From an uncultured SAR86 cluster bacterium (lineage in GTDB: Bacteria > Pseudomonadota > Gammaproteobacteria > Magnimaribacterales > D2472): DNA of 64,000 nucleotides. The stretch spans positions 51,896 through 115,895 of the forward strand of contig CABXJR010000001.1 in NCBI GenBank assembly GCA_902512655.1. The letters are read 5' to 3'. Below, piece after piece: positions 14,927-56,186 of the stretch (the stretch's first letter is position 1; every line of letters starts with the position of its first letter). The position numbers were made by a program, and so were the translations under genes. The notes beneath the pieces were generated by a model, which saw only the letters and a list, made by a program, of their open reading frames with translations, was not told the origin of the DNA and searched no databases.

Positions 14927-14933
14927 ACTAATA

Positions 14934-15749: not shown

Positions 15750-15763
15750 GAAGTACTCTTTTT

Positions 15764-16534: not shown

Positions 16535-16588
16535 ATTTATACCTTATAGACTAACACAGAGGAAAAAATTAATTGAATAATTAAAAAA

Positions 16589-16663: not shown

Positions 16664-16770
16664 TCTTTGAAGAGATCGTATATTACACTATCTTTGAATT
16701 AATCTTAAGGGAATTAAATGCTCTTTTAGATTTTCATAAACATTTTTATTTAATTGGTTTAAGATTAATC

Positions 16771-16965
16771 ATGATATTTGATTTTCATCATCTAAAAAAA
16801 GCAAACATCAATTATATTGCTCATGGAATAAGAGTAATGAAGGTATCAATCATTCTCATTACACTTGGGATCATGGGAATCATTCATGGCCTTCTTCCAT
16901 TTACTTTTGTTGAGACAGTAAGCAATGGAGTTAAAAAGATTGCTGACGAGATGTCACACTTTTAG
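16771..16965 (+). CDS. Small membrane protein, DUF6356-like
   Basis: Internal ATG of track ORF 16588-16965, whose N-terminus is tRNA antisense. MIFDFHHLKKANINYIAHGIRV...IIHGLLPFTFVETVSNGVKKI resembles the H-G-L-L-P-F...T core I recall for DUF6356. Confidence 0.45.
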   Translation: MIFDFHHLKKANINYIAHGIRVMKVSIILITLGIMGIIHGLLPFTFVETVSNGVKKIADEMSHF

Positions 16966-16966
16966 A

Positions 16967-17701
16967 TTACAAAACTTTATATCGACGATAGGTTTTAGAT
17001 GACTGACAAGTGGATTGCTCTAATAATAATTCTTGGATCTCCTTGCTAACTTCTAATGCCTGCCAAGATTCAACAAAACCTTTTTGAGACTCAAGAGATG
17101 AAAATACATTAGTCCATTGAAAACTATTGTTGGATCCCCCTTCTTCAGAATAAAGTATATCTACAGGTGAATTATTTTTTATCAATGAATCGGTGAATTG
17201 CTCAAGAACAAGTTTCATTGTTGCGTAATTAAATCCATCTTTATATTCACACTCTAATATCTCGGAAATTACAGGAGAAGCAGTAATAGTGTGACTTGTT
17301 AATCGCAAAGAACTGTTAGGAACCTTAGAACTTTCACAATTAGCAATATCATCAAAACTTAAGGCCGCAAGTGTAAGATTAAATCTATCCAAGGAATTAG
17401 TTTCAGAATACTTCAGCAATAGATCAAAGAATTGTATTTCTGTTTTATCTTCTGTGACTGGAAATAAGAAATATAATTCCTCGGCATCGCCTCCCATCTT
17501 TTGGAAGCCATTAACAAGCTTTGGTATAAATTTTTCAACAGAGTTAAGGGTTATACCTGCTACTAACTTACAATTAAATGATGATTCTTTAGAAGAATAT
17601 TCTGGTTTAATAAAATTACTTAATTCTAAATTAGAGTTTTTGGAATCTCCCCCGCAGCTTGCAAGAAAAACAATACAAATAAGTTTAATATAGCGTTTCA
17701 C
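16967..17701 (-). CDS. Hypothetical lipoprotein (two-module)
   Basis: Lipobox FLASC-GG. Two halves have a conserved Cys context (SFNCKLVAG / ILECEYKDG), reminiscent of 15764-16534. Confidence 0.6.
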   Translation of the reverse strand: MKRYIKLICIVFLASCGGDSKNSNLELSNFIKPEYSSKESSFNCKLVAGITLNSVEKFIPKLVNGFQKMGGDAEELYFLFPVTEDKTEIQFFDLLLKYSETNSLDRFNLTLAALSFDDIANCESSKVPNSSLRLTSHTITASPVISEILECEYKDGFNYATMKLVLEQFTDSLIKNNSPVDILYSEEGGSNNSFQWTNVFSSLESQKGFVESWQALEVSKEIQELLLEQSTCQSSKTYRRYKVL

Positions 17702-17740
17702 TTTAGAATTAAAATATTTAAATAATGAGATAATAATATT

Positions 17741-18724
17741 ATGAAAAATTATATATGCATACCAGTTATATCGTTGTTCCTTTTGTTAATTATCCCCACA
17801 AAGGTTTATGCATATAAATATGGGCTAGGCTCATGCCTTGATCAAGATCGGGAACAGAGTATTTGGTCATCTATTGAAAAAGAGGATCTCGATGGATTTA
17901 TATTTCTAGGAGATAACGTCTATGGAGATATGCCAAGTGGGAAACTATCCAAGATGGAGAAAGCTTATAAAACTCAAAAAACTAGATTGCCTAAATGGCT
18001 GATGAATGAGAAAGAGATATTAGCAATATGGGACGATCATGATTTTGGTTTGAATGATGGAGGTGGGGATTATTCTTTAAAAAAAGTAGCTGAAAAAATG
18101 TTTTTGAATTTCTGGAATATCCCTAATTCAGATCCAAGAAGAGTTAGAGAAGGTATTTATTTCAAAAAATCCAAAAATATCGAAGGGGTTGAGATAGAGA
18201 TAATTGGCTTAGATACGAGATACTTTAGATCAAAGCTAAAGGGTAAAAAAAATGCTTATAAACAAAATAAGGATTTTGAAGCAACTATTCTTGGTAAAGA
18301 TCAATGGATTTGGTTGGAATCATCAATATCTAACTCTAATGCGGATATCATTGTGATTCTTTCTTCCATTCAAATTTTAGCTACCAATCACCCATATGAA
18401 AAATGGAATAATTTTCCTATAGAGCGAAACAGATTGCTGAAATTCATCGCTAACGCTGCAAAAAAAAGGACAGTTATTGCAATCACTGGTGACAGACATA
18501 AATCAGGAATTTATCAAAATAAAGATTTTGTTGAAATTACGGCTTCATCATTAAATAAATCTGGATCAAAAACCAAAGAAACCGATCCTTTGCTAATAGA
18601 TAAAATATATCCTGTTAAAAATTTTGGGGTTCTAAATATTGAGCCTAGTAAAAATAAAATTACTGTCTCAATTCATGATAAAAATGGACTAGAGCTAAAT
18701 TCAAAAATAATTGATATCCATTAA
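17741..18724 (+). CDS. PhoD-like metallophosphatase (secreted)
   Basis: Signal peptide. FLGDNVYGD and WDDHDFGLNDGG are metallophosphoesterase/PhoD motifs; also ITGDRH. Confidence 0.75.
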   Translation: MKNYICIPVISLFLLLIIPTKVYAYKYGLGSCLDQDREQSIWSSIEKEDLDGFIFLGDNVYGDMPSGKLSKMEKAYKTQKTRLPKWLMNEKEILAIWDDHDFGLNDGGGDYSLKKVAEKMFLNFWNIPNSDPRRVREGIYFKKSKNIEGVEIEIIGLDTRYFRSKLKGKKNAYKQNKDFEATILGKDQWIWLESSISNSNADIIVILSSIQILATNHPYEKWNNFPIERNRLLKFIANAAKKRTVIAITGDRHKSGIYQNKDFVEITASSLNKSGSKTKETDPLLIDKIYPVKNFGVLNIEPSKNKITVSIHDKNGLELNSKIIDIH

Positions 18725-18807
18725 ATAAATGATTATTTTTAATAATCTTTTAAGATTTTTCAAAAGATAGTATTGTTAAATATCAACAAAATATAAAAAA
18801 TGAAAAA

Positions 18808-20085
18808 ATGAAAAAAATTGATTTATTGTTCCTTCTGTTAATCTCTGGCCTTACCAATGCAGATACTTTTTTGCATGTTGGAAACTTGCTAGATACGAAT
18901 AATGGAGAGATCAATAAAGCTGTAACCATTAAAATTGCAGGCAATAAAATATCTGAAATTACTAAAGGTTATGCAACACCAAAAAAGGATGATGAAGTTG
19001 TTGACTTAAAGCAATCCTATGTTTTGCCAGGGTTTATGGATATGCATGTACATTTGGCTCAAGAATATGTTCCAAAAGCAGAAAGGCAATCAAAAATTGA
19101 GCCTGAATATAGGGCACTATTTGCTGCAAATGCAGCAACAAAAACTTTAATGGCTGGGTTTACATCGGTAAGAAATCTTGGTGATGGTGGTATGGAAACT
19201 ATTTCACTCAGAGAGGCAATTAAGCAAGGTTTAGCAATTGGTCCGAGAATTTTTACATCAGGCAAAACTATCGCTACTACTGGCGGCCATGGAGATCCAA
19301 CCAATGGAATGCCAAAAGATAACTACGCACCCCCTACTCCTGAAGAAGGTGTTATCGATAGTCCAGAAGAAGCTATAAAAGCTGTAAGACAGAGATACAA
19401 GGATGGAACAGATGGAATAAAAATTACTGCTACTGGAGGTGTCTTGAGCGTTGCTAAATCTGGTGAAAACCCTCAATTCACGGATGCAGAGCTCGTTGCT
19501 ATTGTAACCACAGCCAATGATTACGGTCTATGGACAGCGGCTCACGCCCATGGAAAAGAAGGCATGAAAAGAGCTGTTATAGCAGGCATCAACTCAATAG
19601 AGCATGGAACCTATATGGATCAAGAGGTTATGGATTTAATGAAAGCTAGAGGCACCTACTATGTGCCTACTATTATGGCTGGTAATTGGGTGGCTGAAAA
19701 AGCTAAGATCCCTAATTTCTTTCCAGCACTTGTTAAACCCAAGGCAGAAAAAATTGGCCCTCAAATCCAATCAACCTTTGCTAAGGCATATAAAGCTGGT
19801 GTAAAAATAGCCTTTGGTACTGATTCGGGTGTTTCTGCACATGGAGATAATTGGCAAGAATTTATTCTCATGACAAATGCTGGGATGTCCAATAAAGATG
19901 CTTTAAAAAGCGCAACAATTGAAACCGCAAAACTCCTTAAGGTAGAAGATAAGTTGGGGCAAATAAAACCAGGGATGCTTGCAGATATAATAGCTGTACA
20001 AAAAAATCCTATTGAGGATATATCAACAGTTGATAATGTAACCTTTGTAATGAAAGATGGAGTCATCTATAAGCAAAGCTCTTAA
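18808..20085 (+). CDS. Amidohydrolase-family metallohydrolase (secreted)
   Basis: Signal peptide. PGFMDMHVHL (HxH), AHAHG, IEHG and FGTDSG are the amidohydrolase metal ligands. Confidence 0.8.
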   Translation: MKKIDLLFLLLISGLTNADTFLHVGNLLDTNNGEINKAVTIKIAGNKISEITKGYATPKKDDEVVDLKQSYVLPGFMDMHVHLAQEYVPKAERQSKIEPEYRALFAANAATKTLMAGFTSVRNLGDGGMETISLREAIKQGLAIGPRIFTSGKTIATTGGHGDPTNGMPKDNYAPPTPEEGVIDSPEEAIKAVRQRYKDGTDGIKITATGGVLSVAKSGENPQFTDAELVAIVTTANDYGLWTAAHAHGKEGMKRAVIAGINSIEHGTYMDQEVMDLMKARGTYYVPTIMAGNWVAEKAKIPNFFPALVKPKAEKIGPQIQSTFAKAYKAGVKIAFGTDSGVSAHGDNWQEFILMTNAGMSNKDALKSATIETAKLLKVEDKLGQIKPGMLADIIAVQKNPIEDISTVDNVTFVMKDGVIYKQSS

Positions 20086-20131
20086 CAATGATTTATAGGT
20101 CTAAGATTATCATCTTGGAACCTGGTATGAC

Positions 20132-21631
20132 ATGAAGCAAATTGGATTAATATTCCCAGACGATTTATCAACTAATAATAAAGTTCTCTCAATTATCAAA
20201 GGCTCAGATCCATTGCTGCTATATGAGCCCTGCGATACTTTTTATCAACTTAAACATCACAAGCATAAGTTAGTATTTCTTTTATCAGCTTTACGGCACC
20301 GGAAAAAAAATTTACAAAAAGATTTTAAAAATATTATCCATATAAAAATTACTAAAGATAGAAAGATTGATCTGATGCATGAGCTAGAAACTTTGCATAA
20401 AAAAATTGACTTTAATCTGCTGCATGTCACTCAACCAAGTGATCACGGCATCTTGACTCAACTTATCTTTTTTGGATCCAAGCATAATATTGAAATTAAG
20501 ATTCATCCAGATACGAAGTTCATTGATTCGATTGAAGGTTTTTTTGAATGGTCCAAAGATAAAAATTCTCTTGTTCAAGAATACTATTATCGCTGGTTAA
20601 GGAAAAAATATAGTCTCCTCATGGAGGGAAATAAGCCGCTAGGTGGAAAGTGGAATTTTGATAAAGAAAATCAGAAAAGCATCTTACAGTTAAAAGAACG
20701 GCCAGAGCTGAGGAGAAAACTTAAATCAGATGAGTTAACAATATTAACAATGGTTGATGTTGAGAATTGCTTTCCAGATTCAGCAGGAAATTTAGAAAAT
20801 TTTAATTGGGCGGTAACTCATGGTGAGGCTAGGAAACAATTGAAGAATTTTTTAGATAATTATTTTCAATCATTTGGTGATTTTCAAGATGCAATCGATA
20901 AAGAAAATACCACTCTCTTTCACTCACTGCTCTCTCCATATATAAATTCTGGATTACTAGATCCAATGGAATGCATAGTTGATGCTATTAGTCACTTCAA
21001 TAAAAAAGAACATGAGATACCAATAAATGCATTAGAAGGCTTTGTCAGACAAATTCTTGGCTGGAGAGAGTTTATTAGAGGAGTCTACTGGCAGAACATG
21101 CCACAATACAAAGAAATGAACTTTTGGTCTCATAGTAATAGCCTAAACGAAAATTGGTATTCAGGCGAAACTGGAATTCCTTTGCTTGATGATGCAATTA
21201 AAGAATCTGCAAATACTGGCTATACTCATCATATTAATAGGCTAATGATAATTTCTAATTTAATGAATCTATCAAATATCAAACCAAATGAAATGTATAA
21301 ATGGTTTATGGAAATGTACGTCGACTCAGCAGACTGGGTCATGGTTCCAAATGTATATGGAATGGGTACATATGCTGACGGAGGAATATTTTCAACTAAA
21401 CCCTATATCTGTGGATCAAGTTACATGCTCAGAATGTCAAATTATAAAAAAGGTGAATGGTGTGATGAAGTGGATGGTCTATATTGGAGGTTTATAGAAA
21501 ATAATAGAGAGTTTTTTGCTAAAAATCCTAGACTAGGATTGATGCTAAAGTCCCTTGATAGAATGAATGAAGATAGAAAGATCAAAATTTATAGAGCAGC
21601 TGACGCATTCATTGATAGGAATATTGCCTAA
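20132..21631 (+). CDS. Cryptochrome/photolyase-related protein (COG3046, PhrB/CryB-like)
   Basis: N-terminus LIFPDDLS, GGKWNFDKEN, GWREFIRGVYW, HHINRLMIISNL and KPYICGSSYMLRMSNY resemble the (6-4)-photolyase-related bacterial class. Confidence 0.75.
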   Translation: MKQIGLIFPDDLSTNNKVLSIIKGSDPLLLYEPCDTFYQLKHHKHKLVFLLSALRHRKKNLQKDFKNIIHIKITKDRKIDLMHELETLHKKIDFNLLHVTQPSDHGILTQLIFFGSKHNIEIKIHPDTKFIDSIEGFFEWSKDKNSLVQEYYYRWLRKKYSLLMEGNKPLGGKWNFDKENQKSILQLKERPELRRKLKSDELTILTMVDVENCFPDSAGNLENFNWAVTHGEARKQLKNFLDNYFQSFGDFQDAIDKENTTLFHSLLSPYINSGLLDPMECIVDAISHFNKKEHEIPINALEGFVRQILGWREFIRGVYWQNMPQYKEMNFWSHSNSLNENWYSGETGIPLLDDAIKESANTGYTHHINRLMIISNLMNLSNIKPNEMYKWFMEMYVDSADWVMVPNVYGMGTYADGGIFSTKPYICGSSYMLRMSNYKKGEWCDEVDGLYWRFIENNREFFAKNPRLGLMLKSLDRMNEDRKIKIYRAADAFIDRNIA

Positions 21632-31978: not shown

Positions 31979-32055
31979 AATGTATTGGATTTAATTAATT
32001 TATCTTAATATGTTCTTATATTTGATTAAATACATTTAATGGAATTTTGTTGAGA

Positions 32056-32312
32056 CAAAAAAAAACAGAGCCAGGCTCTGTCTTTTCAGTTCGAGATTGG
32101 AAGGGGTCTAAAGTGAGAATCTCTTTAGCTCCTTGGAGGCTTTCTCTTTCCTCCTTGGTGGGTTACTAAGCTCTTTTTTATCGTCGACTCTTAGTATCGC
32201 TTTCGCCCTTCGTCTCTTCCTTCTCTTTCTCTCTTACTCCCGTCTGCAGTTGTTTGTAAGTCGGTCCGAGTTGGTCTATTAAATATACGCCTTTAGGAAA
32301 TAGAGTCAACAC
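32056..32312. repeat. 257-bp direct repeat, copy 1 (100% identical to 35427-35683)
   Basis: Base-by-base comparison of the two stretches at a constant offset of 3371 nt found no mismatch. Similarity resumes weakly (AAAAAAATATAACTA) after 8 diverged nt. Confidence 0.95.
32057..32275 (-). ncRNA. Candidate sRNA or leader RNA of about 220 nt (copy 1), purine-rich, GGA-containing
   Basis: Minus strand carries -35 TTGACT (32309-32304), a 16-nt spacer and -10 TATATT (32287-32282). The terminator is ACAGAG-ccugg-CUCUGU plus U9 (32081-32057). There is no ATG on either strand. Confidence 0.5.
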
Positions 32313-32433
32313 CTCTATATAAAAAAATATAACTAATTAAAAAATGAACAGGAAATGAGTTACTTATATGATAAAAACTAATCAAAAATGTTACTTGAAT
32401 GAATTACATCAGCATACTTTTAAAAATTACGAA

Positions 32434-35353: not shown

Positions 35354-35426
35354 GGGCAGGATGATACTCCATTAAAATTTAAAATGAAGCAATGGTATTG
35401 ATTTATGTATGTTAGCTTATATAAGG

Positions 35427-35683
35427 CAAAAAAAAACAGAGCCAGGCTCTGTCTTTTCAGTTCGAGATTGGAAGGGGTCTAAAGTGAGAATCTCTTTAGC
35501 TCCTTGGAGGCTTTCTCTTTCCTCCTTGGTGGGTTACTAAGCTCTTTTTTATCGTCGACTCTTAGTATCGCTTTCGCCCTTCGTCTCTTCCTTCTCTTTC
35601 TCTCTTACTCCCGTCTGCAGTTGTTTGTAAGTCGGTCCGAGTTGGTCTATTAAATATACGCCTTTAGGAAATAGAGTCAACAC
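35427..35683. repeat. 257-bp direct repeat, copy 2 (100% identical to 32056-32312)
   Basis: See copy 1. Offset 3371 nt. Confidence 0.95.
35428..35646 (-). ncRNA. Candidate sRNA or leader RNA of about 220 nt (copy 2)
   Basis: Same promoter and terminator as copy 1, shifted by 3371 nt. The terminator ends 74 nt upstream of the pyk ATG (35353). Confidence 0.5.
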
Positions 35684-35718
35684 TTTTTATTAAAAAAATA
35701 TAACTATTTTAATAAAAA

Positions 35719-47591: not shown

Positions 47592-47693
47592 TATTAAATT
47601 TACTTGGCCTTTTATTTTGGCACAAAAGTCTTTTCTAGCTTTTTTATTGATGTTTACATTAAGTTCTTTCTGAATAAGAATTAACAAAGCAAC

Positions 47694-47734
47694 TGGAGCG
47701 GGAAACCAGGTTCGAACTGGCGACCTCAACTTGG
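47694..47734 (-). other. Degenerate 3' fragment of tRNA-Gly(GCC), fragment a
   Basis: 37 nt are identical to 50305-50341 (CCA end, T-arm, through CCTCAAC). One base is then missing and similarity is lost after TTGG. There is no 5' acceptor strand. Confidence 0.85.
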
Positions 47735-47762
47735 GAGAGTTGTGCTCCACCCTGAATTGTTT

Positions 47763-48977
47763 TCACAACTCACTCCACTTCATCACTTGCAATTCTGGCT
47801 TGGGAACCTTTGCACCGATAGCATCTAACCATCGCAGGGTAATAAAACCAAAATTATGTCCACTTGTATCCAACCAATTAGGGTGCCCGGGGTCTTGGTG
47901 AGCAACCACAAATTCTACCGAACCATCTGCAGAGTACTCTACCTCATCTAATGTAAGTGACCTTGATCGGTGAAGGTAATCTGCGGTTTCATGCCAACGA
48001 GATTCTAAAGCAATATTCCAGTAACGAGTATCAGGCGGCTGCACCCGCATCAGCAAGGCCTCATCATCAGCAATCTGATAACTGCCAATCATATATAGGT
48101 TGTCATTTCCAGCAATCGCCCCTCCCAAGGTATCTGAGGTAGCCTCAATAAATACATTGGTTTTCTCCATCAATTCTGGCAAAACCCTATGATGCAAAGT
48201 TGTCAAACTTAAAAAGGCAAAACTAGTACCAATAATTGCATCTGCAATCTCTTGATCAGTGACGGGGTTATACGGAATTGGGGAGCCCAAGACTTCAATA
48301 TTTAAGGTAGGTAATTCCTCTGTCTCTCGCGTCGCAATATATTGCCGCACTAAAATACCTGACGCATCATCTGGAATTTGAACCCATTGGCCTGGTATAT
48401 CAATCGCTTCTTGACTAAGAATCAAAGTGAAGTTTCCGTCTTGGTCAAGTTCAAGCGTCTTATCGCTAAGATATGCAAACTGGCGCCGAGGTGTATTTCC
48501 TTGACCAGCATTGAATGTCAAACCTAAATAGCGAACGGTACCTATATTACCTGTAATTTTATAGTTGTACTGTCCATCAATTGCTGCAAATTCATATTCA
48601 GCATCTGGATTATCCCCTCCAACCTTACGCACCAAAGTATCCATTCTTTGAAAATGTGGCATACGGGGATTTGCATCGGCAGCTACTTCTACACTCATTG
48701 CTATCACACGCAATAGCCAACGCATGCCTTCAATAGCTTCCTGCTCAGTTCTAGCATCACTGAGCACCATCTTACGAGCAGCTGATAGCATTTCCTCAAA
48801 ATCTAATAATGCTTGATGAGATTCAAGCTTTGAATAGCTTTGATTTGAACTTGCTCCAAAATTCGTAAGAGTTGAATATAAGGCTGGGCCACGAGGAGCT
48901 TGATAGCCTACAAATCCACCAATAATGAAAATTATTATCGCAATAAGCGCAATAACAAACTTTTTAAGCATGGTCAC
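47763..48977 (-). CDS. Membrane-anchored hypothetical protein, DUF1214-like
   Basis: N-terminal TM helix. VGGDNPDAEYEFAAIDGQYNYKITG resembles the NPD-x-x-Y core I associate with DUF1214. The family call is weak. Confidence 0.5.
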   Translation of the reverse strand: MTMLKKFVIALIAIIIFIIGGFVGYQAPRGPALYSTLTNFGASSNQSYSKLESHQALLDFEEMLSAARKMVLSDARTEQEAIEGMRWLLRVIAMSVEVAADANPRMPHFQRMDTLVRKVGGDNPDAEYEFAAIDGQYNYKITGNIGTVRYLGLTFNAGQGNTPRRQFAYLSDKTLELDQDGNFTLILSQEAIDIPGQWVQIPDDASGILVRQYIATRETEELPTLNIEVLGSPIPYNPVTDQEIADAIIGTSFAFLSLTTLHHRVLPELMEKTNVFIEATSDTLGGAIAGNDNLYMIGSYQIADDEALLMRVQPPDTRYWNIALESRWHETADYLHRSRSLTLDEVEYSADGSVEFVVAHQDPGHPNWLDTSGHNFGFITLRWLDAIGAKVPKPELQVMKWSEL

Positions 48978-49153
48978 TATTCCTATTTTCCATTTCAGAT
49001 TTTATATAAATAATACACTGAAACATTACACAAAATACCGTACCTACTTCGTACCTACAAATAAATAATTGAAACATAGCAATAAGCACTAAAGCCTTCT
49101 ATGGGGTATTAGCTATAAAGCCTGTTCTAATGGGGTTAAAGTCTTGGTGGAAG

Positions 49154-49202
49154 TGGAGCGGGAAACCAGGTTCGAACTGGCGACCTCAACCTTGGCAAGG
49201 TT
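49154..49202 (-). other. 3' fragment of tRNA-Gly(GCC), fragment b
   Basis: 49 nt are identical to 50305-50353 (CCA end through the anticodon loop and 4 nt of the 5' anticodon-stem strand), followed by unrelated sequence. Confidence 0.9.
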
Positions 49203-49240
49203 CTATTCCGAAAAAGCTGAGTCCCAGCTCGATAGGTACA

Positions 49241-50137
49241 CTATTTATCATCTCCCCAAACAATTACGTAATTACCTGGAAACGTAAGTGGATTTTCTTC
49301 AATTTGTCGAAACTTTGGAAGCATTTCTTCAAGTTCTTTAATATGCAAAGGTTTGTCATTCCATCTAGGGCTTCCTTTGGTAAAAACAGAGTTATCATTT
49401 CCACTATTCATTACCAAATAACCTCGTTTTGATTTCGATAGTACTTTTTCAACATATTTAATTTGCAGATCTCTTGGAAGTTCAGAAAATGCAAAATTTG
49501 AAATGACTAAATCAAAATTATGCTCAGAGCCTAATTGATTTAATGTTGAATATTTATAATATGAATTCAAAACAAAGCTCTCTAAATACTTTACGTTAAG
49601 TTCTAAAACTTCATTAAGATCCATGAGCGTATAATTTGAAAAATTTATAGCCCTATCAAGAATTAAATATTGACCACCATATCCTGTTCCAATTTCAACA
49701 ATATTTTCTCCTATCCTGTTTTGAAATAAACTAATGATATCTGAAGCTACCTTCATATAGCGAATAGTTGATGGGCTAATCATCCCTAACCCATCAAATT
49801 CAACACATCTTGCTCCGCCAACAGAATCATTAATACGAAAATCATTTATATTAGTTATAAGCTCAGGAGTCTGATTCTTTATAATCTCAATACTTGCAAG
49901 AGCTTCTTCGTGACTGGCATGTTCAAGAATCTCGTTGTATGCAGGATCTCTCTTGAAGTTACTAAAAGCTTTTCTATTGTTAGTAGCTTTAATTACAGCT
50001 TGCAGGTAATAATGATTTCCATCGCTAATTGAAGATGCGCTTTCCAAAGAATAGCTTTTGGGACTAATAAATTTCTTTTTTATTGCATACCTCACATATG
50101 CGGGATCTTTAAATAATTGACTGAAGAAATATTTCAT
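49241..50137 (-). CDS. Class I SAM-dependent methyltransferase (putative sugar O-methyltransferase type)
   Basis: Motif I IVEIGTGYGGQYLIL, an acidic residue after beta-2 (LMDLN), and DLVISNFAFSE. Confidence 0.7.
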   Translation of the reverse strand: MKYFFSQLFKDPAYVRYAIKKKFISPKSYSLESASSISDGNHYYLQAVIKATNNRKAFSNFKRDPAYNEILEHASHEEALASIEIIKNQTPELITNINDFRINDSVGGARCVEFDGLGMISPSTIRYMKVASDIISLFQNRIGENIVEIGTGYGGQYLILDRAINFSNYTLMDLNEVLELNVKYLESFVLNSYYKYSTLNQLGSEHNFDLVISNFAFSELPRDLQIKYVEKVLSKSKRGYLVMNSGNDNSVFTKGSPRWNDKPLHIKELEEMLPKFRQIEENPLTFPGNYVIVWGDDK

Positions 50138-50304
50138 AACTTTCCCACCTGTATAAAGTTTCTAAAAATTTTTAAATGTAAAAATAAAAACAATTATGAC
50201 GCTTTGTCTAAACAGTTGCTAATTTTTAAACTCCTAACTTCATCATCTATTTTTAAAAAGTGCTACGAAAGTACTTAGTTAAAATCGTGAGAAAAGCTTT
50301 AAAT

Positions 50305-50380
50305 TGGAGCGGGAAACCAGGTTCGAACTGGCGACCTCAACCTTGGCAAGGTTGCGCTCTACCAACTGAGCTATTCCCGC
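50305..50380 (-). tRNA. tRNA-Gly (anticodon GCC), intact
   Basis: The reverse complement is GCGGGAATAGCTCAGTTGGTAGAGCGCAACCTTGCCAAGGTTGAGGTCGCCAGTTCGAACCTGGTTTCCCGCTCCA: a full cloverleaf with anticodon loop TTGCCAA. Confidence 0.95.
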
Positions 50381-50468
50381 TTTTGAGTTGGATAATATAC
50401 ATCCAAGGGAATATGCATTCAAGCTTAAAAAGACTGATATTTAGCAGCTTTTAAAAATGTAAAAATTT

Positions 50469-50482
50469 TTGACATAAATCAA
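50469..50482 (+). promoter_or_regulatory. FNR/Dnr/NnrR-type box TTGAC-ATAA-ATCAA upstream of the nor operon
   Basis: 9/10 match to TTGAT-N4-ATCAA. The centre is at 50475.5. A -10-like ATAATT at 50505-50510 is exactly where a class II (-41.5) promoter would place it. Confidence 0.5.
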
Positions 50483-50533
50483 TTTTTAAATATTTCTTCT
50501 ATGAATAATTAATTTTATGGGAGGAAAATAGAA

Positions 50534-50845
50534 ATGGGCGTTTCAATGCTGCAAATTGATCTTTTAGGCTCGGCTATATCTGGAGCCTTGGTGGTTTTAT
50601 TTGGAGCAGGCTATGCTCTATTGTTTGCATTTTCTCAATTAAAAAAAAGCAAGGGTATGCTGGCCTCCTCTTTTGCTTCTTACCTTTGCTTGGTCATAGC
50701 AATCAATTACTTGCTTAACGCTTTACAGATGTCCGGATGGGGTATTGGTTTAATTTGGTTTGTAATTCTTGGATATTTCTTGGGACCCATATTTATTTGG
50801 TATCTCACTTTACAAACTCACAGTGAGGACCTTAACAATGAATAG
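50534..50845 (+). CDS. Small 3-TM membrane protein, unknown function (first gene of the nor operon)
   Basis: ORF track. Hydrophobic. Its stop overlaps the norC ATG by 8 nt. Confidence 0.5.
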   Translation: MGVSMLQIDLLGSAISGALVVLFGAGYALLFAFSQLKKSKGMLASSFASYLCLVIAINYLLNALQMSGWGIGLIWFVILGYFLGPIFIWYLTLQTHSEDLNNE

Positions 50846-51437
50846 AGAAAACTACTGGGCATCTCAAACTTTTTGGAAAAAGTGTGCCATTTGGGTTACT
50901 GCAGTCATGTTTGTTATTTTAATATTTTTAACATTTGATTCAGTCTCAAAAATCACCGCCGGAACGGAGCGCGTTCCAGAATATAGCGTTATTAATAAAA
51001 AAGTGTTTTACAAATATAGCGAAGCCAGGGATATCCTTGTACCAGAAATTTGCTGCGAAGCACCTCTGTTTGGTAAAAAGCTCTCAAATGATGAGGCTGC
51101 AGATTTAATAGATTTAGGGAAGCTAACAATTCAGGCTAAAAACTGTATGAATTGTCACACCCTTCTAGGAAATGGCGCATATTACGCACCTGACCTAACA
51201 AAAGCTTGGCTTGACCAAGGCTGGATTAACGAATCGATAAGAGAAAATTTGATGGTTGATTTTCTTCTAGATCCAGAGGCAAATGCTAGATCTTTTGGTA
51301 CAAATAGAAAAATGCCAAATCTTGACTTAACCGAGGACGAAGCCAAAGCGGTAGTTGCTTACCTTAAGTGGATGTCAGCCATCGATACCAATGGTTTTCC
51401 AGCTTGGTTTAAACCTATCTATCAGAAGGAAGAATAA
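50838..51437 (+). CDS. norC: Nitric oxide reductase subunit C (membrane-anchored mono-haem cytochrome c)
   Basis: NCMNCHTLLGNGAYYAPDLTK matches the NorC NCxGCHTLLGEGAYFAPEL. There is an N-terminal TM anchor and YLKWMSAIDTNGFP near the C-terminus. Start moved to MNRENYW (the track ORF starts at 50769). Confidence 0.85.
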   Translation: MNRENYWASQTFWKKCAIWVTAVMFVILIFLTFDSVSKITAGTERVPEYSVINKKVFYKYSEARDILVPEICCEAPLFGKKLSNDEAADLIDLGKLTIQAKNCMNCHTLLGNGAYYAPDLTKAWLDQGWINESIRENLMVDFLLDPEANARSFGTNRKMPNLDLTEDEAKAVVAYLKWMSAIDTNGFPAWFKPIYQKEE

Positions 51438-52846
51438 TGGCATTTGCAAACTTAAATCTTGGGCAGAAAGTTTCTGTAAAATATTTTATAGGAGCAATGG
51501 TTTTATTTATTGCTCAAATGGTTTTTGGTCTTCTTGCGGGTATTCAATTTATACAGCCAGAATTTCTTTACCAGATATTAGATTTTAATGTCACCAGGAT
51601 GGTGCATATCAATGCCATGATTATCTGGCTATTGTTTGGTTTTTTAGGATCAGTGTATTGGTTGGTAGAAGATGAATCAGGAACCTCTTTGGTTGGTTAT
51701 AAATTAGCCAATATTGGATTTTGGGTATTGTCGATCGCTGTCACAATAGTGGTTTTAGTGTATTTATTTGTTCAAGTTGGATCTGGAACCCAGGCTTCAC
51801 TTTGGTTGATTAATGAGGGCAGAGAATACATAGAAGCTCCTCGATGGGCTGACATTGGCATAGTGCTAGTAATGCTAGCTTTTTTTTACAACATTGCTGC
51901 AACCTTTATGAAGGGAAAGTGGAGCGGTATTTCCGGTGTGTTAGTACTTGATTTGTTGGCCTTGGCAGGCATTTATTTAGCGGGAATGTTCTATTCTCCA
52001 AACATTTCGATGGATCAATTTTGGTGGTGGTGGGTCGTGCACCTATGGGTTGAAGCAACATGGGAAGTTTTGGTGGCTTGCATCATGGCTTGGGGTCTTA
52101 TGAAAACAATCAACGCAAGACGTGAGATTGTTACGACTTGGCTGTATGTCGAAGTTGCGTTAATGTTTGGATCAGGAATTCTTGGTCTGGGCCACCATTA
52201 TTTTTGGATAGGCACTCCAGAATACTGGCTTACGATAGGTGGATTCTTTTCTGCACTTGAACCTGTACCCCTTGTGGCAATGCTTGTTCATGCTGTTTAC
52301 GATACGGGAACGAAAAACTTAAAAGTATCCAATCACCCTGCTTTTGCCTGGTTTATCGCACATGTTTTTGGAAATTTTCTCGGCGCTGGTGTGTGGGGAT
52401 TTTTTCAAACCCTGCCTCAAATCAATTTATATACACATGGAACTCAATGGTCAGCCTCTCATGGTCATCTAGCTTTTTTTGGAGCCTACGTGACAATAAA
52501 TGTGGCTATGTTCTATATGGCCATTCAAAAAATAAGAGGTGGCCAGATCTTTGGATCAGCTCTTGTAAATAAATACAGATGGAAAACATCATTAGCGCTT
52601 CTAAACATTGGTGCCATGGGTATGACAATAGCTTTATTGGTTGCAGGCTATCAGCAAGCTTTTATTGAAAGAGCTGTCGAAGGATCAACCTGGAGCGGTT
52701 TCTTTGAAGCTCAAACCAATTTAACATTTATTGCATCAATGAATTGGAGACTTTTATTTGGTGTCTTAATGACAATAGGAACCTTTGTTCTTGCATGGGA
52801 TTTACTGACAATTGGAAAAACTAATGACTCAAAAAATACAACATAA
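51437..52846 (+). CDS. norB: Nitric oxide reductase subunit B (cNOR, haem-copper oxidase family)
   Basis: All ligand contexts are present: RMVHINAM, HLWVEATWE, LGHHYFWIG, ASHGHLAFFGAY. 12 TM, 469 aa. The ATG overlaps the norC stop. Confidence 0.9.
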   Translation: MAFANLNLGQKVSVKYFIGAMVLFIAQMVFGLLAGIQFIQPEFLYQILDFNVTRMVHINAMIIWLLFGFLGSVYWLVEDESGTSLVGYKLANIGFWVLSIAVTIVVLVYLFVQVGSGTQASLWLINEGREYIEAPRWADIGIVLVMLAFFYNIAATFMKGKWSGISGVLVLDLLALAGIYLAGMFYSPNISMDQFWWWWVVHLWVEATWEVLVACIMAWGLMKTINARREIVTTWLYVEVALMFGSGILGLGHHYFWIGTPEYWLTIGGFFSALEPVPLVAMLVHAVYDTGTKNLKVSNHPAFAWFIAHVFGNFLGAGVWGFFQTLPQINLYTHGTQWSASHGHLAFFGAYVTINVAMFYMAIQKIRGGQIFGSALVNKYRWKTSLALLNIGAMGMTIALLVAGYQQAFIERAVEGSTWSGFFEAQTNLTFIASMNWRLLFGVLMTIGTFVLAWDLLTIGKTNDSKNTT

Positions 52847-53165
52847 AGCTATAAGCTTTTGCAGGCCTTTAAAATTTTACTTATTAGTAGCCCTCTTTTC
52901 TATAAATACACAGGCAAATGATGTAGAAAGTGGAAAAAGTAAATCATCTATGTGCATCAGCTGTCATGGTGTTTCAGGCATAAGCTCAAACCAAATGTGG
53001 CCAAATTTAGCAGGGCAAAAGAGAGGGTATTTAATTAAAGCTTTGCAGGACTACAAGAGTGGTGAAAGAAAAAACGCCATGATGAACTCTATCTTAAAAG
53101 GTTTAAGTGAAGAAGATATCCAAGATATCTCCTCATATTTTTCATCTCTATCTGAATCAAACTAG
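52824..53165 (+). CDS. Soluble class I c-type cytochrome (c4/c5/c553-like monohaem)
   Basis: Signal peptide. CISCHG haem motif, PNLAGQKRGYLIKALQDYKSGERKNAMM with the distal Met. Start at ATG 52824. Confidence 0.8.
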   Translation: MTQKIQHKAISFCRPLKFYLLVALFSINTQANDVESGKSKSSMCISCHGVSGISSNQMWPNLAGQKRGYLIKALQDYKSGERKNAMMNSILKGLSEEDIQDISSYFSSLSESN

Positions 53166-54220
53166 GAAGCCTTATCTTTAAATAGAGGTGTTTCAAGAGA
53201 TGCCAGGCTTAACTCATCTGCATTCTCAAAATCAACATATTTCATAATGCCTAATTTTGAGAACCTCTTTTCTAAAGATGCAGAAAGCAACCCAACTCGT
53301 TTTAAGTTAGGGACAATATTTGCAAAAAGTATTTCTCGAAATTCTCCCATGACTACATTACAAAGCACTATATCTCTCGCTTCTGATTCTGGAATATGAA
53401 GAAACTCTGAAGGGACTTGAGAATTGACCAGTCTCTCTCGCATAACAACACATGCTTCATAAGCAAAATTTTCTCTTTCTTTGATTTGAGAAGGCGACAA
53501 ATTTGGTGTGTAATCCTGTAAGTAATTGACACCAAAAGTTACATGCCTTGCTTCGTCCCTTTTAACCAATCTAAGAATTTCTTTTAAAAGGGGATCTTGA
53601 GCCGTATTTTTAAGCGATTCAAATGCTGCCAATGCCAAGCCTTCAATGATTATCTGCATGCCAAGAAATTTTATATCCCAGCTTGGGTGAGTCAAAATGC
53701 TGTCTAATAGCTTTTTTAAGTTACTATCTATTGGGTACATCACCCCTATTCGCTTTAAGTACTGATTAAAAACTTCAACATGCCTTGCCTCATCAAATGC
53801 TTGAGATGCAGCGCATAGTTTTGCCTGATGGGTAGGAGCGCAATTAACCAACTGTGAAGCAACCATTAATGCTCCTTGCTCACCATGCAAAAATTGACTC
53901 AATGTCCATGCTAATGTGTGATGATCCATCGCAAGCCTTGCTTCTGAGCTAAGTTTTTTAAACTCAACTGTGTCTTTAAATGGATTTAATGAAGGGTCTA
54001 AATAATATTTCTTTTCAGAAAATTTGGAAGACCAATCTAGATCAATGGTGCTATTCCAATTTAGGATTTTTCCTAATTCGTATATTTTTCTTATTCGATT
54101 ATCAACAACCTGATAATCCCAGTTATAACTTCCGGTCAGTGGAACGGTAAAAGTTTCTGACATATAACCAATCTCAACTGGGGACACCGGCCCATCTCTA
54201 GTCTCAAAAATATCATTCAT
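53162..54220 (-). CDS. Ferritin-like di-iron oxygenase (AurF-like family)
   Basis: Four-helix-bundle ligand pattern: FLHGEQGA, FDEARHVEVF, IIIEGLALAAFE, KRDEARHVTFG (E, ExxH, E, ExxH). Confidence 0.6.
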   Translation of the reverse strand: MNDIFETRDGPVSPVEIGYMSETFTVPLTGSYNWDYQVVDNRIRKIYELGKILNWNSTIDLDWSSKFSEKKYYLDPSLNPFKDTVEFKKLSSEARLAMDHHTLAWTLSQFLHGEQGALMVASQLVNCAPTHQAKLCAASQAFDEARHVEVFNQYLKRIGVMYPIDSNLKKLLDSILTHPSWDIKFLGMQIIIEGLALAAFESLKNTAQDPLLKEILRLVKRDEARHVTFGVNYLQDYTPNLSPSQIKERENFAYEACVVMRERLVNSQVPSEFLHIPESEARDIVLCNVVMGEFREILFANIVPNLKRVGLLSASLEKRFSKLGIMKYVDFENADELSLASLETPLFKDKAS

Positions 54221-54354
54221 AATTTACTTAAAGTATTTAATTTACATACTAAATTAATATAATTTATTAAGTGATGTTTTGATTAATATCAAATAAAGTA
54301 ATTAAAAACCACTGCAAAATTTATCTTATTAACAGTTAATTTATAGGAGAAATA

Positions 54355-54807
54355 ATGTCAGTTAAAAAAGTTCTGATTGCAATAGACTCGTCAATGGATG
54401 CAGATTTTATATTAGAAAAAAGTGATCAATATTTGCCAAAAGAAGGTGCGGAAATCTCTATGATCTCTGTTGTGGAGCCCATGCCACTTTTTTACGCAGA
54501 TATTTACTGGTCAAATGAAACTTACGAGGTTGAAAAAAATTTAGTTCGAGAAGGCATTGAAAAGGCAAAAGAGAAATTAATGGAGTTTGGTCGACTTTAC
54601 GGCATTCAAACTAGTAACTGTCATGTAAAAAAAGGGGATATAGTGACAGAGATTCACAGAATGGCCGAAAATCTAAATATAGACTTGCTGGTAATGGGCA
54701 GTCACTGTCGCAAAGGTTTCCAGCGGTTTCGTATGGGCTCAACAGCTGCAGCAGTGATACATGGTGCTAAATACGATTTACATATTGTAAGGCTTAAAGA
54801 GAGCTAA
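54355..54807 (+). CDS. Universal stress protein (UspA family)
   Basis: 150 aa. VLIAIDSS..., C-terminal LLVMGSHCRKG...GSTAAAVIHGAKYDLHIV ATP-binding-type motif. Confidence 0.85.
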   Translation: MSVKKVLIAIDSSMDADFILEKSDQYLPKEGAEISMISVVEPMPLFYADIYWSNETYEVEKNLVREGIEKAKEKLMEFGRLYGIQTSNCHVKKGDIVTEIHRMAENLNIDLLVMGSHCRKGFQRFRMGSTAAAVIHGAKYDLHIVRLKES

Positions 54808-54957
54808 GTTTTTATCTGCAATAGGTTTCTACTTAAAAATTAGCGTAACTTCACCGTAACTTAAAAAAAACTAGATAGACGAAAGAATGCTGGCTAGATT
54901 AAACTTCACTTAAAACCTTTTTGCTTGATTGATAGGGTTTTAAGATGCGATTTAAGG

Positions 54958-54997
54958 CCTTGGCAAGGTTGCGCTCTACCAACTGAGCTATTCCCGC
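54958..54997 (-). other. 5' fragment of tRNA-Gly(GCC), fragment d, with diverged upstream flank
   Basis: 40 nt are identical to 50341-50380 (anticodon stem-loop, D-arm, 5' acceptor strand). The adjoining 43 nt (54998-55040) match the flank of the intact gene (50381-50423) at about 35/43 positions by manual alignment. Confidence 0.85.
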
Positions 54998-55049
54998 TTT
55001 TGAGTTGGTTAATGTACATCCATGACATAAAGCATTCAAGAGAATTCTG

Positions 55050-56186
55050 CTAGTTGAATTTTCTTAAGATTTCTTCTGTATCTTCCCCAAGAGATGGAGC
55101 CGTTTTGGTAACTTCAAGTCTTTCCCCATCAAAGATTGCTGGATGAGACACTGCATTCATTTTGCCTTGATGCGGGCTATCCATTTGAAAAATTGTTTTA
55201 CTCGCTATAACTTGAGGCTGATTAATCACTTCTTCTCTTGGAGTAAAAGGCGCACAAGGCACATCATTTGCTCTTAATGCTTGAATGGCTTCTTCTACAG
55301 TTAAATCAAGAAATGAGAATATTGCCTCGGCAACTAAATCAGACATATTTTCACTTCTAGCTGATGCGTCTATAAAACGAGGATCAGTTTTATATTCAGG
55401 TTTATTAATTGCATCAAATATTCCATACCACTGAGCATCTGTCATAGCTGCAATGGTAAAAAAACCATCTTTTGCATGGATTAAACTTGAATAGCTAGCT
55501 GACAACGGGGGAAGTTTTTTTACATCCTTATCTAACAAAGTCTCATTCATCATCCCATCAGGCCATAAGAAGAAGATGGCTGAATCAAGCATGGATAATT
55601 TTATATGACTTGCAATACCAGTTCTTTCTCGTTGAAAGAGAGCAGCAGTTAGAGCCTGACAAGCAGTGTATCCAGTGATTTTGTCACATATTAATGTTTT
55701 CATATAAGCAGGCTGATCACCATTAGCCTGAATGCTTGTTGCTCCAGACATACCCTGAATTACATGGTCGTAAGCTGGCGCAGAAGCTAATGGACCTTCA
55801 TCACCAAAACCAGAAATTGATACATATATAATCTTTGGGTTAACTTTTCTAATATCTTCCAACCCTAACCCTAATTTTTCATTAACTCCGGGACGATAAT
55901 TGCTAATAAAAACATCGGCTTCTTTTACCAGTTTTAATAATTTTTTAACTTCTTTTTGATCTTTGAGATTAAGGTTGATTGACTTCTTGCCTCTATTACA
56001 ATTTGCAAATATTGCAGAAAAACCTCCCTTCTGAGTTCCTAAATAGCGCATTGAATCTCCTATCCCAGTTGGCTCTACTTTAATTACTTCTGCGCCTTGA
56101 TCACACAAAATCATTGTTGCTAAGGAGGCCGTTACTATGCTTGAAAGTTCTAAAATTTTTATTCCATCTAAAGGTTTTTGTTGCAT
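55050..56186 (-). CDS. Family III CoA-transferase (CaiB/BaiF)
   Basis: GIKILELSSIVTASLATMILCDQGAEVIKVE, ISGFGDEGP. Second paralogue in the window. Confidence 0.85.
   Translation of the reverse strand: MQQKPLDGIKILELSSIVTASLATMILCDQGAEVIKVEPTGIGDSMRYLGTQKGGFSAIFANCNRGKKSINLNLKDQKEVKKLLKLVKEADVFISNYRPGVNEKLGLGLEDIRKVNPKIIYVSISGFGDEGPLASAPAYDHVIQGMSGATSIQANGDQPAYMKTLICDKITGYTACQALTAALFQRERTGIASHIKLSMLDSAIFFLWPDGMMNETLLDKDVKKLPPLSASYSSLIHAKDGFFTIAAMTDAQWYGIFDAINKPEYKTDPRFIDASARSENMSDLVAEAIFSFLDLTVEEAIQALRANDVPCAPFTPREEVINQPQVIASKTIFQMDSPHQGKMNAVSHPAIFDGERLEVTKTAPSLGEDTEEILRKFN

Follow-up and report, generated by a model that had tools for sequence, protein, structure and literature searches.

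A norCB islet and stacked cassettes at the tRNA-Gly(GCC) gene of SAR86 bacteria

Why does a bacterium with one intact tRNA-Gly(GCC) gene carry a second copy of the 5' part of that gene, with an upstream flank of its own, on the far side of a norCB gene cluster? We asked this of the window, the whole stretch of 64,000 nt analysed here from an uncultured SAR86 cluster bacterium, in which ARAGORN and Rfam call a single intact copy of this tRNA. A first-pass annotation of the same DNA had proposed that an ancestral tRNA gene lay next to the CoA-transferase gene, and that a 4.6-kb element recombined with it in the anticodon stem-loop and supplied the present gene with a new 5' half and promoter. 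We compared the locus (Table 1) with those of SAR86 relatives, using the CoA-transferase family III gene as the anchor for finding them.

Table 1. Features of the tRNA-Gly(GCC) locus (coordinates in the window)
Feature	Position	Strand	Evidence or remark
CoA-transferase family III gene, conserved upstream neighbour of the tRNA	55050..56186	-	Pfam PF02515, E = 3e-99
Predicted native promoter of the original tRNA	54998..55040	-	-35 TTGAAT 55039-55034; -10 TACATT 55016-55011
Fragment d, 5' part (1-40) left behind from the original tRNA-Gly(GCC)	54958..54997	-	ends at G40, anticodon stem; 40/40 versus intact gene
norCB islet body	50424..54957	.	4534 nt; repeat-to-repeat unit 4617 nt; Pfam, NCBIfam, PDB
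Non-coding islet ends	50424-50533, 54808-54957		110 nt and 150 nt
Small membrane protein	50534-50845	+	islet gene
norC	50838-51437	+	islet gene, NorC-type cytochrome c
norB	51437-52846	+	islet gene, COX1-family
Second cytochrome c	~52824-53165	+	islet gene
AurF-like di-iron protein	53162-54220	-	islet gene
Usp	54355-54807	+	islet gene
Predicted islet-borne promoter, now driving the intact tRNA	50381..50423	-	promoter scan; -35 TTGAAT 50422-50417; -10 TATATT 50399-50394
Intact, regenerated tRNA-Gly(GCC), copy c	50305..50380	-	ARAGORN and Rfam
3'-replacing cassette, one gene	49203..50304	-	L142 lacks precisely this repeat-to-repeat unit of 1151 bp and otherwise matches the window
Putative sugar O-methyltransferase	49241-50137	-	TIGR04371, E = 4e-13
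Fragment b, 3' part (28-76) displaced from the previous tRNA copy	49154..49202	-	49/49 versus tRNA
Older 3'-replacing cassette	47743..49153	-	DUF1214 protein gene 47763-48977 (-); Pfam DUF1214; no integrase
Fragment a, oldest displaced 3' part	47691..47751	-	positions 41-76 intact; repeat search

The stranded 5' part and its promoter

A repeat search of the window paired 50341-50423 with 54958-55040 (repeat family D3, 83 nt, identity 75/83). Both parts of this repeat are as first described: fragment d is identical at 40/40 positions to tRNA positions 1-40, and the following 43 nt match the upstream flank of the intact gene at 35/43 positions. All eight mismatches lie in the flank and none in the tRNA part (8/43 versus 0/40, p = 0.0056, Fisher exact test), and a block of perfect identity extends over 51 nt, from promoter position -11 to tRNA position 40. 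Fragment d has no 3' half, as had been noticed; it ends at G40, where unrelated DNA (CCTTAAATCG...) follows. A 3' part (positions 28-76) is found as fragment b, which shares just 13 nt, AACCTTGCCAAGG, with fragment d, again in agreement with the earlier reading. Fragments d and b are two halves of earlier tRNA copies that overlap in the anticodon stem-loop.

The 43-nt flank is a tRNA promoter (TTGAAT-N17-TATATT), so its outer edge marks the limit of conservation and not a recombination junction. Beside fragment d this flank runs on without a break into the CoA-transferase gene; over 56839-54958 the window and the islet-free relative L001 share 97.5% identity. Against promoters of its own lineage (L142, L001) the promoter at this end shows 1-3 nt of difference, against the islet-borne promoter 8 nt; the TACATT form of its -10 element is confined to the window, and close relatives have TATATT. 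If this promoter still fires, its transcripts would be sense to the AurF-like gene and antisense to Usp. More generally, the flank of fragment d is lineage-specific and equal to that of islet-free relatives (0 differences between the d flank of L148 and L002, 2 between that of L142 and L001). Among islet copies of different lineages the flank of the intact gene varies by 0-1 nt, and all other tRNA-Gly promoters in the comparison are 4-13 nt away from it; since it is near-constant wherever the islet occurs, it travels with the islet. Thus the stranded copy holds the native promoter and the promoter beside the intact gene arrived with the islet, and these two flanks support the proposal of an islet-supplied 5' half and promoter.

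The proposed ancestral position is also found in relatives. In nine SAR86 relatives without norCB at this locus (L001-L007, L009, L010), the next gene position after the CoA-transferase is taken by an intact tRNA-Gly(GCC) in 7/9, and in L002 and L007 the intact tRNA comes after an intervening small lipoprotein gene. The empty site is represented by L001, which has an uninterrupted tRNA and is 97.5% identical over the adjoining CoA-transferase region.

The order of fragment d, islet and tRNA recurs in independent assemblies (L080, L084, L085, L142, L143, L145, L148 and L149), and the arrangement is therefore no assembly artefact. In all of these the junction between G40 and CCTTAAATCG is identical. 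The junction nucleotide stays constant across four native flank contexts, in which the neighbour is the CoA-transferase, a TonB receptor, NeuB, or a lipoprotein gene with a nucleotidyltransferase; such constancy between independent hosts is a mark of site-specific integrative elements. The fragment d of L080 carries an A26 variant, which may be native or a product of decay; the nearest relatives of the L080 TonB receptor (only 90% protein and ~80% DNA identity) have another tRNA promoter. Further tRNA polymorphisms are A10 in L085 and T16C in the L004 type.

Could fragment d instead be what is left of a second tRNA-Gly gene, once complete and in tandem with the first, after an unrelated deletion had cut it short? 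Promoter duplications do exist here, as two tRNA-type promoters flank the lipoprotein gene in L002, L007 and L150. We nevertheless consider such a remnant very improbable. The first-pass annotation had named intermediate genomes with two intact tandem genes as the sign of this history, and such a pair occurs in 0 of the ~35 SAR86 loci examined, which leaves tandem duplication plus deletion without support. In addition, four backgrounds that differ in their native flanks all have the truncation at one and the same nucleotide, and in the window fragments d (1-40) and b (28-76) are complementary and bear the native upstream and downstream flanks.

Cargo and horizontal spread of the islet

Pfam confirmed the cargo that had been read from the translations: a NorC-type cytochrome c, a COX1-family NorB, a second cytochrome c, an AurF-like di-iron protein and a Usp. 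NorB matches COX1 with E = 5e-63 and has P. aeruginosa cNOR (3o0r_B, E = 8e-98) as its best solved relative; NorC is a cytochrome c whose best solved relative is 3o0r_C of P. aeruginosa cNOR (E = 2e-12), and the norC and norB genes overlap by one base. With a haem-copper-oxidase-type NorB beside a membrane-anchored c-type cytochrome NorC, the predicted NorCB qualifies as a cNOR. Among all loci compared, the non-coding ends of the islet matched nothing except other islet copies, and exact-sequence look-up returned nothing for the Usp and the methyltransferase of the window.

The islet is 97-99% identical between genomes, whereas the flanking core genes are only 74-80% identical (flanks alignable in L080 and L144); the copies of the window and L080 share 97.2% identity over 4741 nt, and for L144 the figure is 98.3%. 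This bears out a horizontal origin: several lineages of SAR86 have received the same islet, at one and the same nucleotide. The GC content of the islet equals that of its surroundings and its composition is without anomaly, which is compatible with a SAR86-internal donor. The equal GC content would also suit an islet that SAR86 had at this site from the start and that most lineages then lost, with no insertion at all. We give this history almost no credence, as it is contradicted by the excess of islet identity over that of the adjoining core genes, by an islet promoter that is constant where native promoters differ, and by the uninterrupted tRNA of so close a relative as L001.

The nearest non-islet relatives of NorB (P0004 and P0005, 84-85% identical) were considered as a source. 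Their locus is conserved, has no tRNA-Gly in the vicinity and shows no match to the tRNA core beside the operon, and the donor role was rejected.

Stacked cassettes and the order of events

Two further cassettes lie on the other side of the intact tRNA. Comparison with L142, which is without the 1151-bp cassette, shows that the 3' part (28-76) of the intact copy c comes from the methyltransferase cassette; its 5' part is that of the norCB islet. Among the loci compared this cassette is present in the window only; it has no integrase, and its sugar O-methyltransferase gene gave no Pfam and no PHROG match. The downstream flank that the previous copy left at fragment b (cttccaccaagac...) matches the one after the intact tRNA in L002, L142 and L146. 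Beyond fragment b lies the DUF1214 cassette, which recurs in L007 in the order tRNA, DUF1214, 3' fragment, amidohydrolase. In fragment a the region of positions 24-40 is degenerate and holds an anticodon-loop-like CTCCCAA, and its downstream flank matches that after the intact tRNA in L003, L006 and L161.

Intermediate states are preserved in relatives: L007 and L002 have the DUF1214 cassette only, and L142 and L146 have the islet without the methyltransferase cassette. Read from these genomes, there were three successive insertions, of the DUF1214 cassette, then the norCB islet and then the methyltransferase cassette. The tRNA-identity blocks of these three independent elements end at positions 28, 40 and ~36-41, all in the anticodon stem-loop of the 76-nt gene. 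Upstream insertions without a tRNA fragment occur in L008, in the L150 lineage and as the lipoprotein gene of L002 and L007, so the anticodon loop is not the route of all variation at the locus. No fragments were found of the other two tRNA genes of the window.

Possible mechanisms and known systems

How did the islet and the cassettes enter? On balance we lean towards a hotspot at tRNA-Gly(GCC), at which islet insertion and cassette stacking would share one crossover point, the anticodon stem-loop, and in which a tyrosine integrase supplied in trans would act on a circular islet. The 4.6-kb, integrase-free norCB unit, bearing a tRNA promoter and tRNA positions 1-40 at one end, recombined with the resident tRNA within the anticodon loop; it would have done so as a circle, the crossover being made by the integrase of another element. 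The resident promoter and positions 1-40 were thereby left beside the CoA-transferase gene as fragment d, and the islet promoter and 5' part were joined to the resident 3' part, so that the gene remained intact. The DUF1214 cassette entered the same loop before the islet and the methyltransferase cassette after it, both with the usual polarity, leaving fragments a and b, respectively. What we infer in this scheme is the agent, an anticodon-loop-class tyrosine integrase provided by another element, and the circular islet on which it would act; the comparisons themselves show the anatomy, which flank is native and which imported, how the insertions followed one another, and the horizontal spread.

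With Pfam, NCBIfam and PHROGs, no integrase was detected in the islet, in either of the other cassettes, in the flanking genes (45.9-56.6 kb) or, outside this region, in ten further ORFs near other tRNAs and 292-nt repeats (the window has 43 ORFs of at least 180 aa). Each of the six islet ORFs is either assigned to another family or encodes a small membrane protein, with 0 Phage_integrase matches in the same searches. Likewise, no integrase was present in the examined parts of the variable regions of L001, L003, L004, L008, L009, L010, L085 and L148; L004, of which 10 kb (contig CACOPA010000005.1) were covered, carries a methylase/helicase element. A circular (attP) junction is expected to read islet promoter (...GGATGTATATTATCCAACTCAAAA), tRNA positions 1-40 and CCTTAAATCGCATC; among contigs this junction was absent, as 9/9 junction-bearing contigs had a native flank. 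The junction pattern had 0 matches in viral contigs and 2 in JGI metagenome contigs, both of the integrated form with native flanks. Viral contigs contained nothing related to the islet and no relatives of NorB or the methyltransferase. Two sets of viral contigs were rejected as carriers: L096, the only match to the tRNA 3' half, has a tRNA cluster Ala-Gly-Ser and another upstream flank, and the 45 contigs matching the 5' half all have complete tRNAs and are mostly GC-high.

The same structure and history could have arisen with the islet spread by RecA-dependent homologous recombination and with no integrase in the spread. The incoming DNA would be a circle formed via the 83-nt direct repeats, or a linear fragment, with short homology arms (the tRNA 5' part and promoter on one side, the tRNA on the other), and only the founding anticodon-loop junction would have been made by some other event. 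We regard this as a possible but less likely course. It agrees with the lack of both integrase and circular junction in the contigs and proteins searched, and the 51 nt of perfect identity are available for it and would give the same product; moreover, fragment-free gene swaps occur on both sides of the tRNA in SAR86 relatives (TonB receptor versus CoA-transferase, AurF-Usp in L150, TauD and a symporter in L008). However, homology alone does not explain why the identity blocks of three cassettes all end in the anticodon stem-loop, and arms of 40-50 nt are close to the shortest that RecA can use. None of five contexts has a mosaic promoter, which also weighs against RecA, although the perfect block would bias crossovers anyway.

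Recombination by a trans-supplied integrase has a parallel in the cis-mobilizable elements (CIMEs) of the Streptococcus ICESt literature and in other decayed islands, which are att-flanked and have no recombination genes. They resemble the islet in being cargo-only DNA between attachment-site repeats, in forming tandem arrays at a tRNA-type site and in a movement that presumably depends on the integrase of another element. In contrast to CIMEs, neither a helper element nor an integrase turned up in the parts of SAR86 searched, and the islet could instead spread by homologous recombination.

Islander islands offer a second comparison. Among them a 5' tDNA fragment is found in 159 and a 3' fragment in 3760 (159/3919, about 4%), so that replacement of the 5' part is the uncommon polarity, as had been remarked, and one that is already documented; the 'A' (anticodon) sublocation, in which the three identity blocks of the present locus also end, is used by 2083/3919 islands. 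In Islander an intact tDNA is accompanied by a cognate fragment that points the same way and, if it is a 5' fragment, lies on the upstream side, and fragment d has this placement. Islander also asks for an end fragment and a gene restored by the island; fragment d starts at position 1, and with the promoter and positions 1-40 from the islet the tRNA is a full one called by ARAGORN and Rfam. The repeat-to-repeat unit of 4617 nt is within the 2-200 kb range. As in the 5'-fragment class with an anticodon-centred attP, the tRNA gene is interrupted in its anticodon loop and made whole again by the inserted DNA, the 5' part is displaced upstream with its orientation unchanged, and tandem arrays form at one tDNA. 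Islander islands, of at least 2 kb, are required to contain a tyrosine integrase gene, whereas the norCB islet has none and shares its tRNA and core with cassettes of the opposite (3') polarity that are integrase-free as well. Such residence of a genomic island in a tRNA gene is real but uncommon and already on record, and the islet reveals no new mechanism.

In the tycheposon model of Prochlorococcus, as far as excerpts of the preprint describe it (Hackl et al., bioRxiv 10.1101/2020.12.28.424599), material accumulates beside a tRNA after element activity. The SAR86 locus resembles the tycheposon-seeded islands of these excerpts in that flexible genes are stacked at a tRNA of a streamlined marine bacterium with partial tRNA copies between the blocks, and most such islands are element-free at any time. 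Unlike in tycheposons, the hallmark genes (tyrosine recombinase, replication genes) were not seen in the SAR86 locus; the excerpts mention neither SAR86 nor 5' replacement.

A broader and more speculative idea, which we think unlikely, is that SAR86 might exchange cassettes in the manner of an integron, at the anticodon loop of tRNA-Gly(GCC) and with a recombinase supplied in trans, for example by a phage or satellite. If so, integrase-free cassettes carrying either the 5' part and promoter or the 3' part would be portable attachment sites and could stack on both sides of the tRNA gene. This would give a nitric-oxide reductase operon a route to sweep through diverged, streamlined SAR86 lineages without recognised mobile elements.

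Whatever the recombinase, the locus is a clear multi-step case of the entry of flexible genes into a streamlined, uncultured and globally abundant marine bacterium, with the intermediate states surviving in relatives. The functional tRNA gene here consists of imported parts only, its promoter and 5' part coming from one cassette and its 3' part from another. A complete predicted cNOR operon is being exchanged among SAR86 lineages, which bears on how these surface heterotrophs cope with nitric oxide or low oxygen.

Fragments of tRNA-Gly(GCC) and the state of the locus in relatives

Besides the intact tRNA-Gly(GCC) gene, the window contains three partial copies (fragments a, b and d; see the table), and the fragment and flank coordinates and counts of the first-pass annotation were all correct. 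Fragments b and d share only AACCTTGCCAAGG, i.e. most of the anticodon stem-loop. Of the 43 nt preceding d (54998-55040), 35 are shared with the corresponding stretch preceding the intact gene (50381-50423). This flank is the tRNA promoter: it begins at the -35 box TTGAAT, which is followed after 17 nt by TATATT (the promoter found for the intact copy), and at the d copy the -10 box carries a private change to TACATT (55011-55016). Between d and the intact copy we counted mismatches at 0/40 tRNA positions versus 8/43 flank positions (p = 0.0056), indicating that the two copies diverged in separate lineages, each with its tRNA under selection. A duplication in place would not leave such a tRNA-identical, flank-diverged pattern.

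Features of the tRNA-Gly(GCC) locus and the norCB islet
Feature	Position	Strand	Description
Intact tRNA-Gly(GCC)	50305-50380	minus	ARAGORN and Rfam; sole intact copy in the window
Fragment d	54958-54997		tRNA positions 1-40, 40/40 identical
Fragment b	49154-49202		tRNA positions 28-76, 49/49 identical
Fragment a	~47691-47751		positions 41-76 intact, preceded by a degenerate anticodon-arm copy
CoA-transferase gene adjoining d	55050-56186		Pfam PF02515
Islet membrane protein			103 residues
Islet NorC			closest solved relative 3o0r_C
Islet NorB			closest solved relative 3o0r_B, E = 8e-98
Islet second c-type cytochrome			
Islet AurF-like or R2-like di-iron protein		opposite	
Islet universal stress protein (Usp)			

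A search with the CoA-transferase gene yielded SAR86 single-cell and metagenome-assembled genomes with 79-99% protein identity. As the first-pass annotation had predicted for islet-free relatives, an intact tRNA-Gly(GCC) follows the CoA-transferase gene on the same strand in nine of ten of them (L001-L007, L009, L010), and norCB is absent from this site in all nine. The distance between the two genes is ∼55 nt in seven of these relatives and ∼400 nt in L002 and L007, where a small lipoprotein gene with a tRNA-type promoter on either side lies in between. Downstream of the tRNA, all relatives carry variable DNA (1.6-4.7 kb or more) ahead of a conserved amidohydrolase gene; the tRNA is thus a hotspot for flexible genes.

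Several other arrangements were observed at this locus. The tRNA-Gly promoter is doubled in some SAR86 lineages (L002 9437-9830, L007 11145-11530, L150 4400-4780), with one copy driving a lipoprotein gene of 80-93 residues and the other the tRNA; what remains of this insertion upstream is the extra promoter, with no tRNA fragment. The tenth relative, L008, has 3.9 kb (1881-5780) between the CoA-transferase gene and the tRNA, encoding a TauD-family dioxygenase, a sodium:alanine symporter and two other ORFs; no 5' tRNA fragment was detected there, and the upstream flank of its tRNA is unrelated. The L150 lineage (also L151-L157), which matches the window at 93.6% on the side of the CoA-transferase gene, has an AurF-like and Usp pair (L150 4794-6453) with 78% nucleotide identity to that of the islet. 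The pair separates the CoA-transferase gene from the first promoter and is accompanied by neither norCB nor a tRNA fragment, so that this module is found at the hotspot in a second, older arrangement too. Finally, L004 (SAR86 AH-324-F14) carries downstream of its tRNA-Gly a stretch of >10 kb (11260-21128) that looks like a mobile or defence element, with a PD-(D/E)XK nuclease, a multi-HTH/sigma-70 region 4 protein, an N6/N4 DNA methylase, an SNF2-type helicase and several unknowns; neither an integrase nor a 3' fragment was found within the available stretch.

Origin of the flanks and spread of the islet

We judged the origin of the flanks from aligned promoters and junctions. At d, the flank and the sequence preceding it run on without a break into the CoA-transferase gene, and 56839-54958 is 97.5% identical to the islet-free relative L001. 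Beside the intact gene, the flank plus the next 27 nt varies by 0-1 nt among the window, L080, L082, L142, L144 and L146; from every other tRNA-Gly promoter compared, the islet-borne flank differs by 4-13 nt. With a native flank at d and a constant one on the islet side, the promoter and 5' part of the intact tRNA arrived with the islet, and fragment d is, by these alignments, the stranded original. This agrees with the earlier proposal that the ancestral tRNA lay at d and that the islet supplied a new 5' half and promoter. Private changes occur in stranded d copies (the -10 change of TATATT to TACATT in the window; G26 to A in L080, at 13535; G10 to A in L085), unlike the regenerated tRNA copies, which are all unchanged; these changes fit a decaying remnant and may also be native lineage variants.

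The islet is present in other lineages as well. The single-cell genome L080 is 97.2% identical to window 50301-55041 over 4741 nt, compared with 80.1% and 75.8% for the core genes on either side. It has d followed by the same junction as the window (...CCAAGG|CCTTAAATCGCATC), a promoter before d with 9 differences from the window's d flank, and a TonB-receptor gene upstream in place of the CoA-transferase gene. Searches with the junction and with Usp homologues gave further copies and two additional contexts: in L085, NeuB, RmlC and RmlD genes lie upstream of the islet site, and in L148 and L149 a lipoprotein gene and a nucleotidyltransferase gene precede a d flank identical to the L002 tRNA promoter. 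In L144 and L147 the islet is 98.3% identical and the adjoining CoA-transferase gene only 74%. Vertical inheritance of the islet with loss in other lineages is excluded by this contrast between islet (97-99%) and flanking genes (74-80%). In L144 (4496-4940) and L147 neither d nor the promoter next to it is present, and the islet, shorter by its last 66 nt, directly abuts the lipoprotein gene; the stranded promoter and tRNA stub were probably deleted secondarily. The compositional check proposed in the first-pass annotation revealed no anomaly, as the GC content of the islet does not differ from its surroundings, which is consistent with a donor within SAR86.

Order and mechanism of the insertions

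The downstream flank of fragment a corresponds to that after the intact tRNA in L003, L006 and L161, and the downstream flank of b to that in L002, L142, L146 and L157. L007 has the order tRNA, DUF1214 gene, 3' fragment, amidohydrolase. L142, which belongs to the window's lineage (98.9% identity over 9.5 kb), contains d, the islet and the intact tRNA; missing from it is precisely the 1151-bp unit that separates b from the 3' part of the intact gene. These states indicate three steps: a DUF1214 cassette entered with the usual polarity, creating fragment a; then the norCB islet with 5' polarity, creating d; and last a cassette with a putative sugar O-methyltransferase (TIGR04371), again with the usual polarity, creating b. 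The last insertion was seen in this window only. After three insertions, the functional tRNA gene of this genome retains no original part. The degenerate part of fragment a (47730-47751) reads as an anticodon arm with another anticodon, CTCCCAA, and the matching part of the oldest 3' fragment in L007 (13586-13605) reads CTTCCAA; the DUF1214 cassette may thus owe its attachment site to a tRNA-Gly with the anticodon CCC or TCC, or the site may have decayed.

The d junction is identical in four native backgrounds. The aligned junctions show that recombination occurred within the anticodon stem-loop, as had been proposed, and that one integrase-less unit reached the same nucleotide in several backgrounds. 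The alternative raised in the first-pass annotation, a tandem tRNA duplication followed by a deletion, finds no support, as two complete tandem tRNA-Gly genes were present at none of the ∼35 SAR86 loci compared and the truncation falls at one and the same point in all backgrounds.

As to the means by which the crossover was made, we lean towards an integrase supplied in trans: the resident d-islet-tRNA arrangement has the structure of an attL-element-attR unit, from which such an enzyme could cut out the islet as a circle and reinsert it elsewhere. A site-specific enzyme is favoured because the tRNA-identity blocks of three independent elements end at the anticodon-centred sublocation (positions 28, 40 and ∼36-41 of the 76-nt gene). 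Against it count the lack of an integrase (no recombinase among the islet proteins, the DUF1214 protein and the methyltransferase, and no integrase in ten further window ORFs or the scanned parts of the relatives' variable regions), of a circular junction among nine junction-bearing contigs and of any related element in viral contigs, as well as the fragment-free upstream gene swaps at the locus (L008, the AurF-Usp pair of the L150 lineage, the lipoprotein gene). The missing integrase and circular junction and the fragment-free swaps also speak for homologous recombination, which we consider possible but less likely: the product would be no different if RecA had used the perfect 51-nt block (promoter -11 to tRNA +40). 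The data do not separate the integrase in trans from RecA. A 5.7-kb contig classed as viral (L096, IMG/VR 3300040856_003998) carries a tRNA cluster (Ala-UGC, Gly-GCC, Ser-GCU; 808-2596) whose tRNA-Gly is identical to the SAR86 gene and has a different upstream flank.

Relation to known elements

CIMEs are cargo-only elements bounded by att sites, and they are one of the two concepts to which the norCB islet comes closest. The other is the Prochlorococcus islands described with tycheposons, in which partial tRNAs separate the blocks (10.1101/2020.12.28.424599). No tycheposon hallmark genes were found at the SAR86 locus. Islander, a database of tDNA-integrated genomic islands, lists 3760 islands with a 3' tDNA fragment versus 159 with a 5' fragment, and 2083 of 3919 islands use the anticodon-centred sublocation (PMC4383910, Table 1 for the fragment counts). 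The polarity of the islet, rightly called uncommon in the first-pass annotation, is thus that of a known minority (∼4%). The islet conforms to the Islander rules on configuration, orientation, end fragment and length but breaks the integrase rule and would therefore go unreported by a search of the Islander type. A limited literature search found no description of the SAR86 locus or of norCB exchange in SAR86.

Elsewhere in the window, the IMES-1 RNA motif (Rfam RF02034) occurs twice at full length on the minus strand, at 32081-32270 and 35452-35641 (198 bits each, full model). The copies lie within 292-nt direct repeats (32053-32344 and 35424-35715, 97% identical), and between these repeats are encoded a patatin-like phospholipase, a MarC-family protein and pyruvate kinase. 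IMES-1 came originally from marine metagenomes and, to our knowledge, had no firm host when described; here it is located in a SAR86 contig.

Overall, the observation of the first-pass annotation is confirmed, including its cargo list, and its interpretation is supported. The insertion of the norCB islet is of a kind already known, and it is well documented. It gains some additional interest because no integrase is present, because a single core has received cassettes with either polarity, and because a cNOR operon has spread through SAR86.
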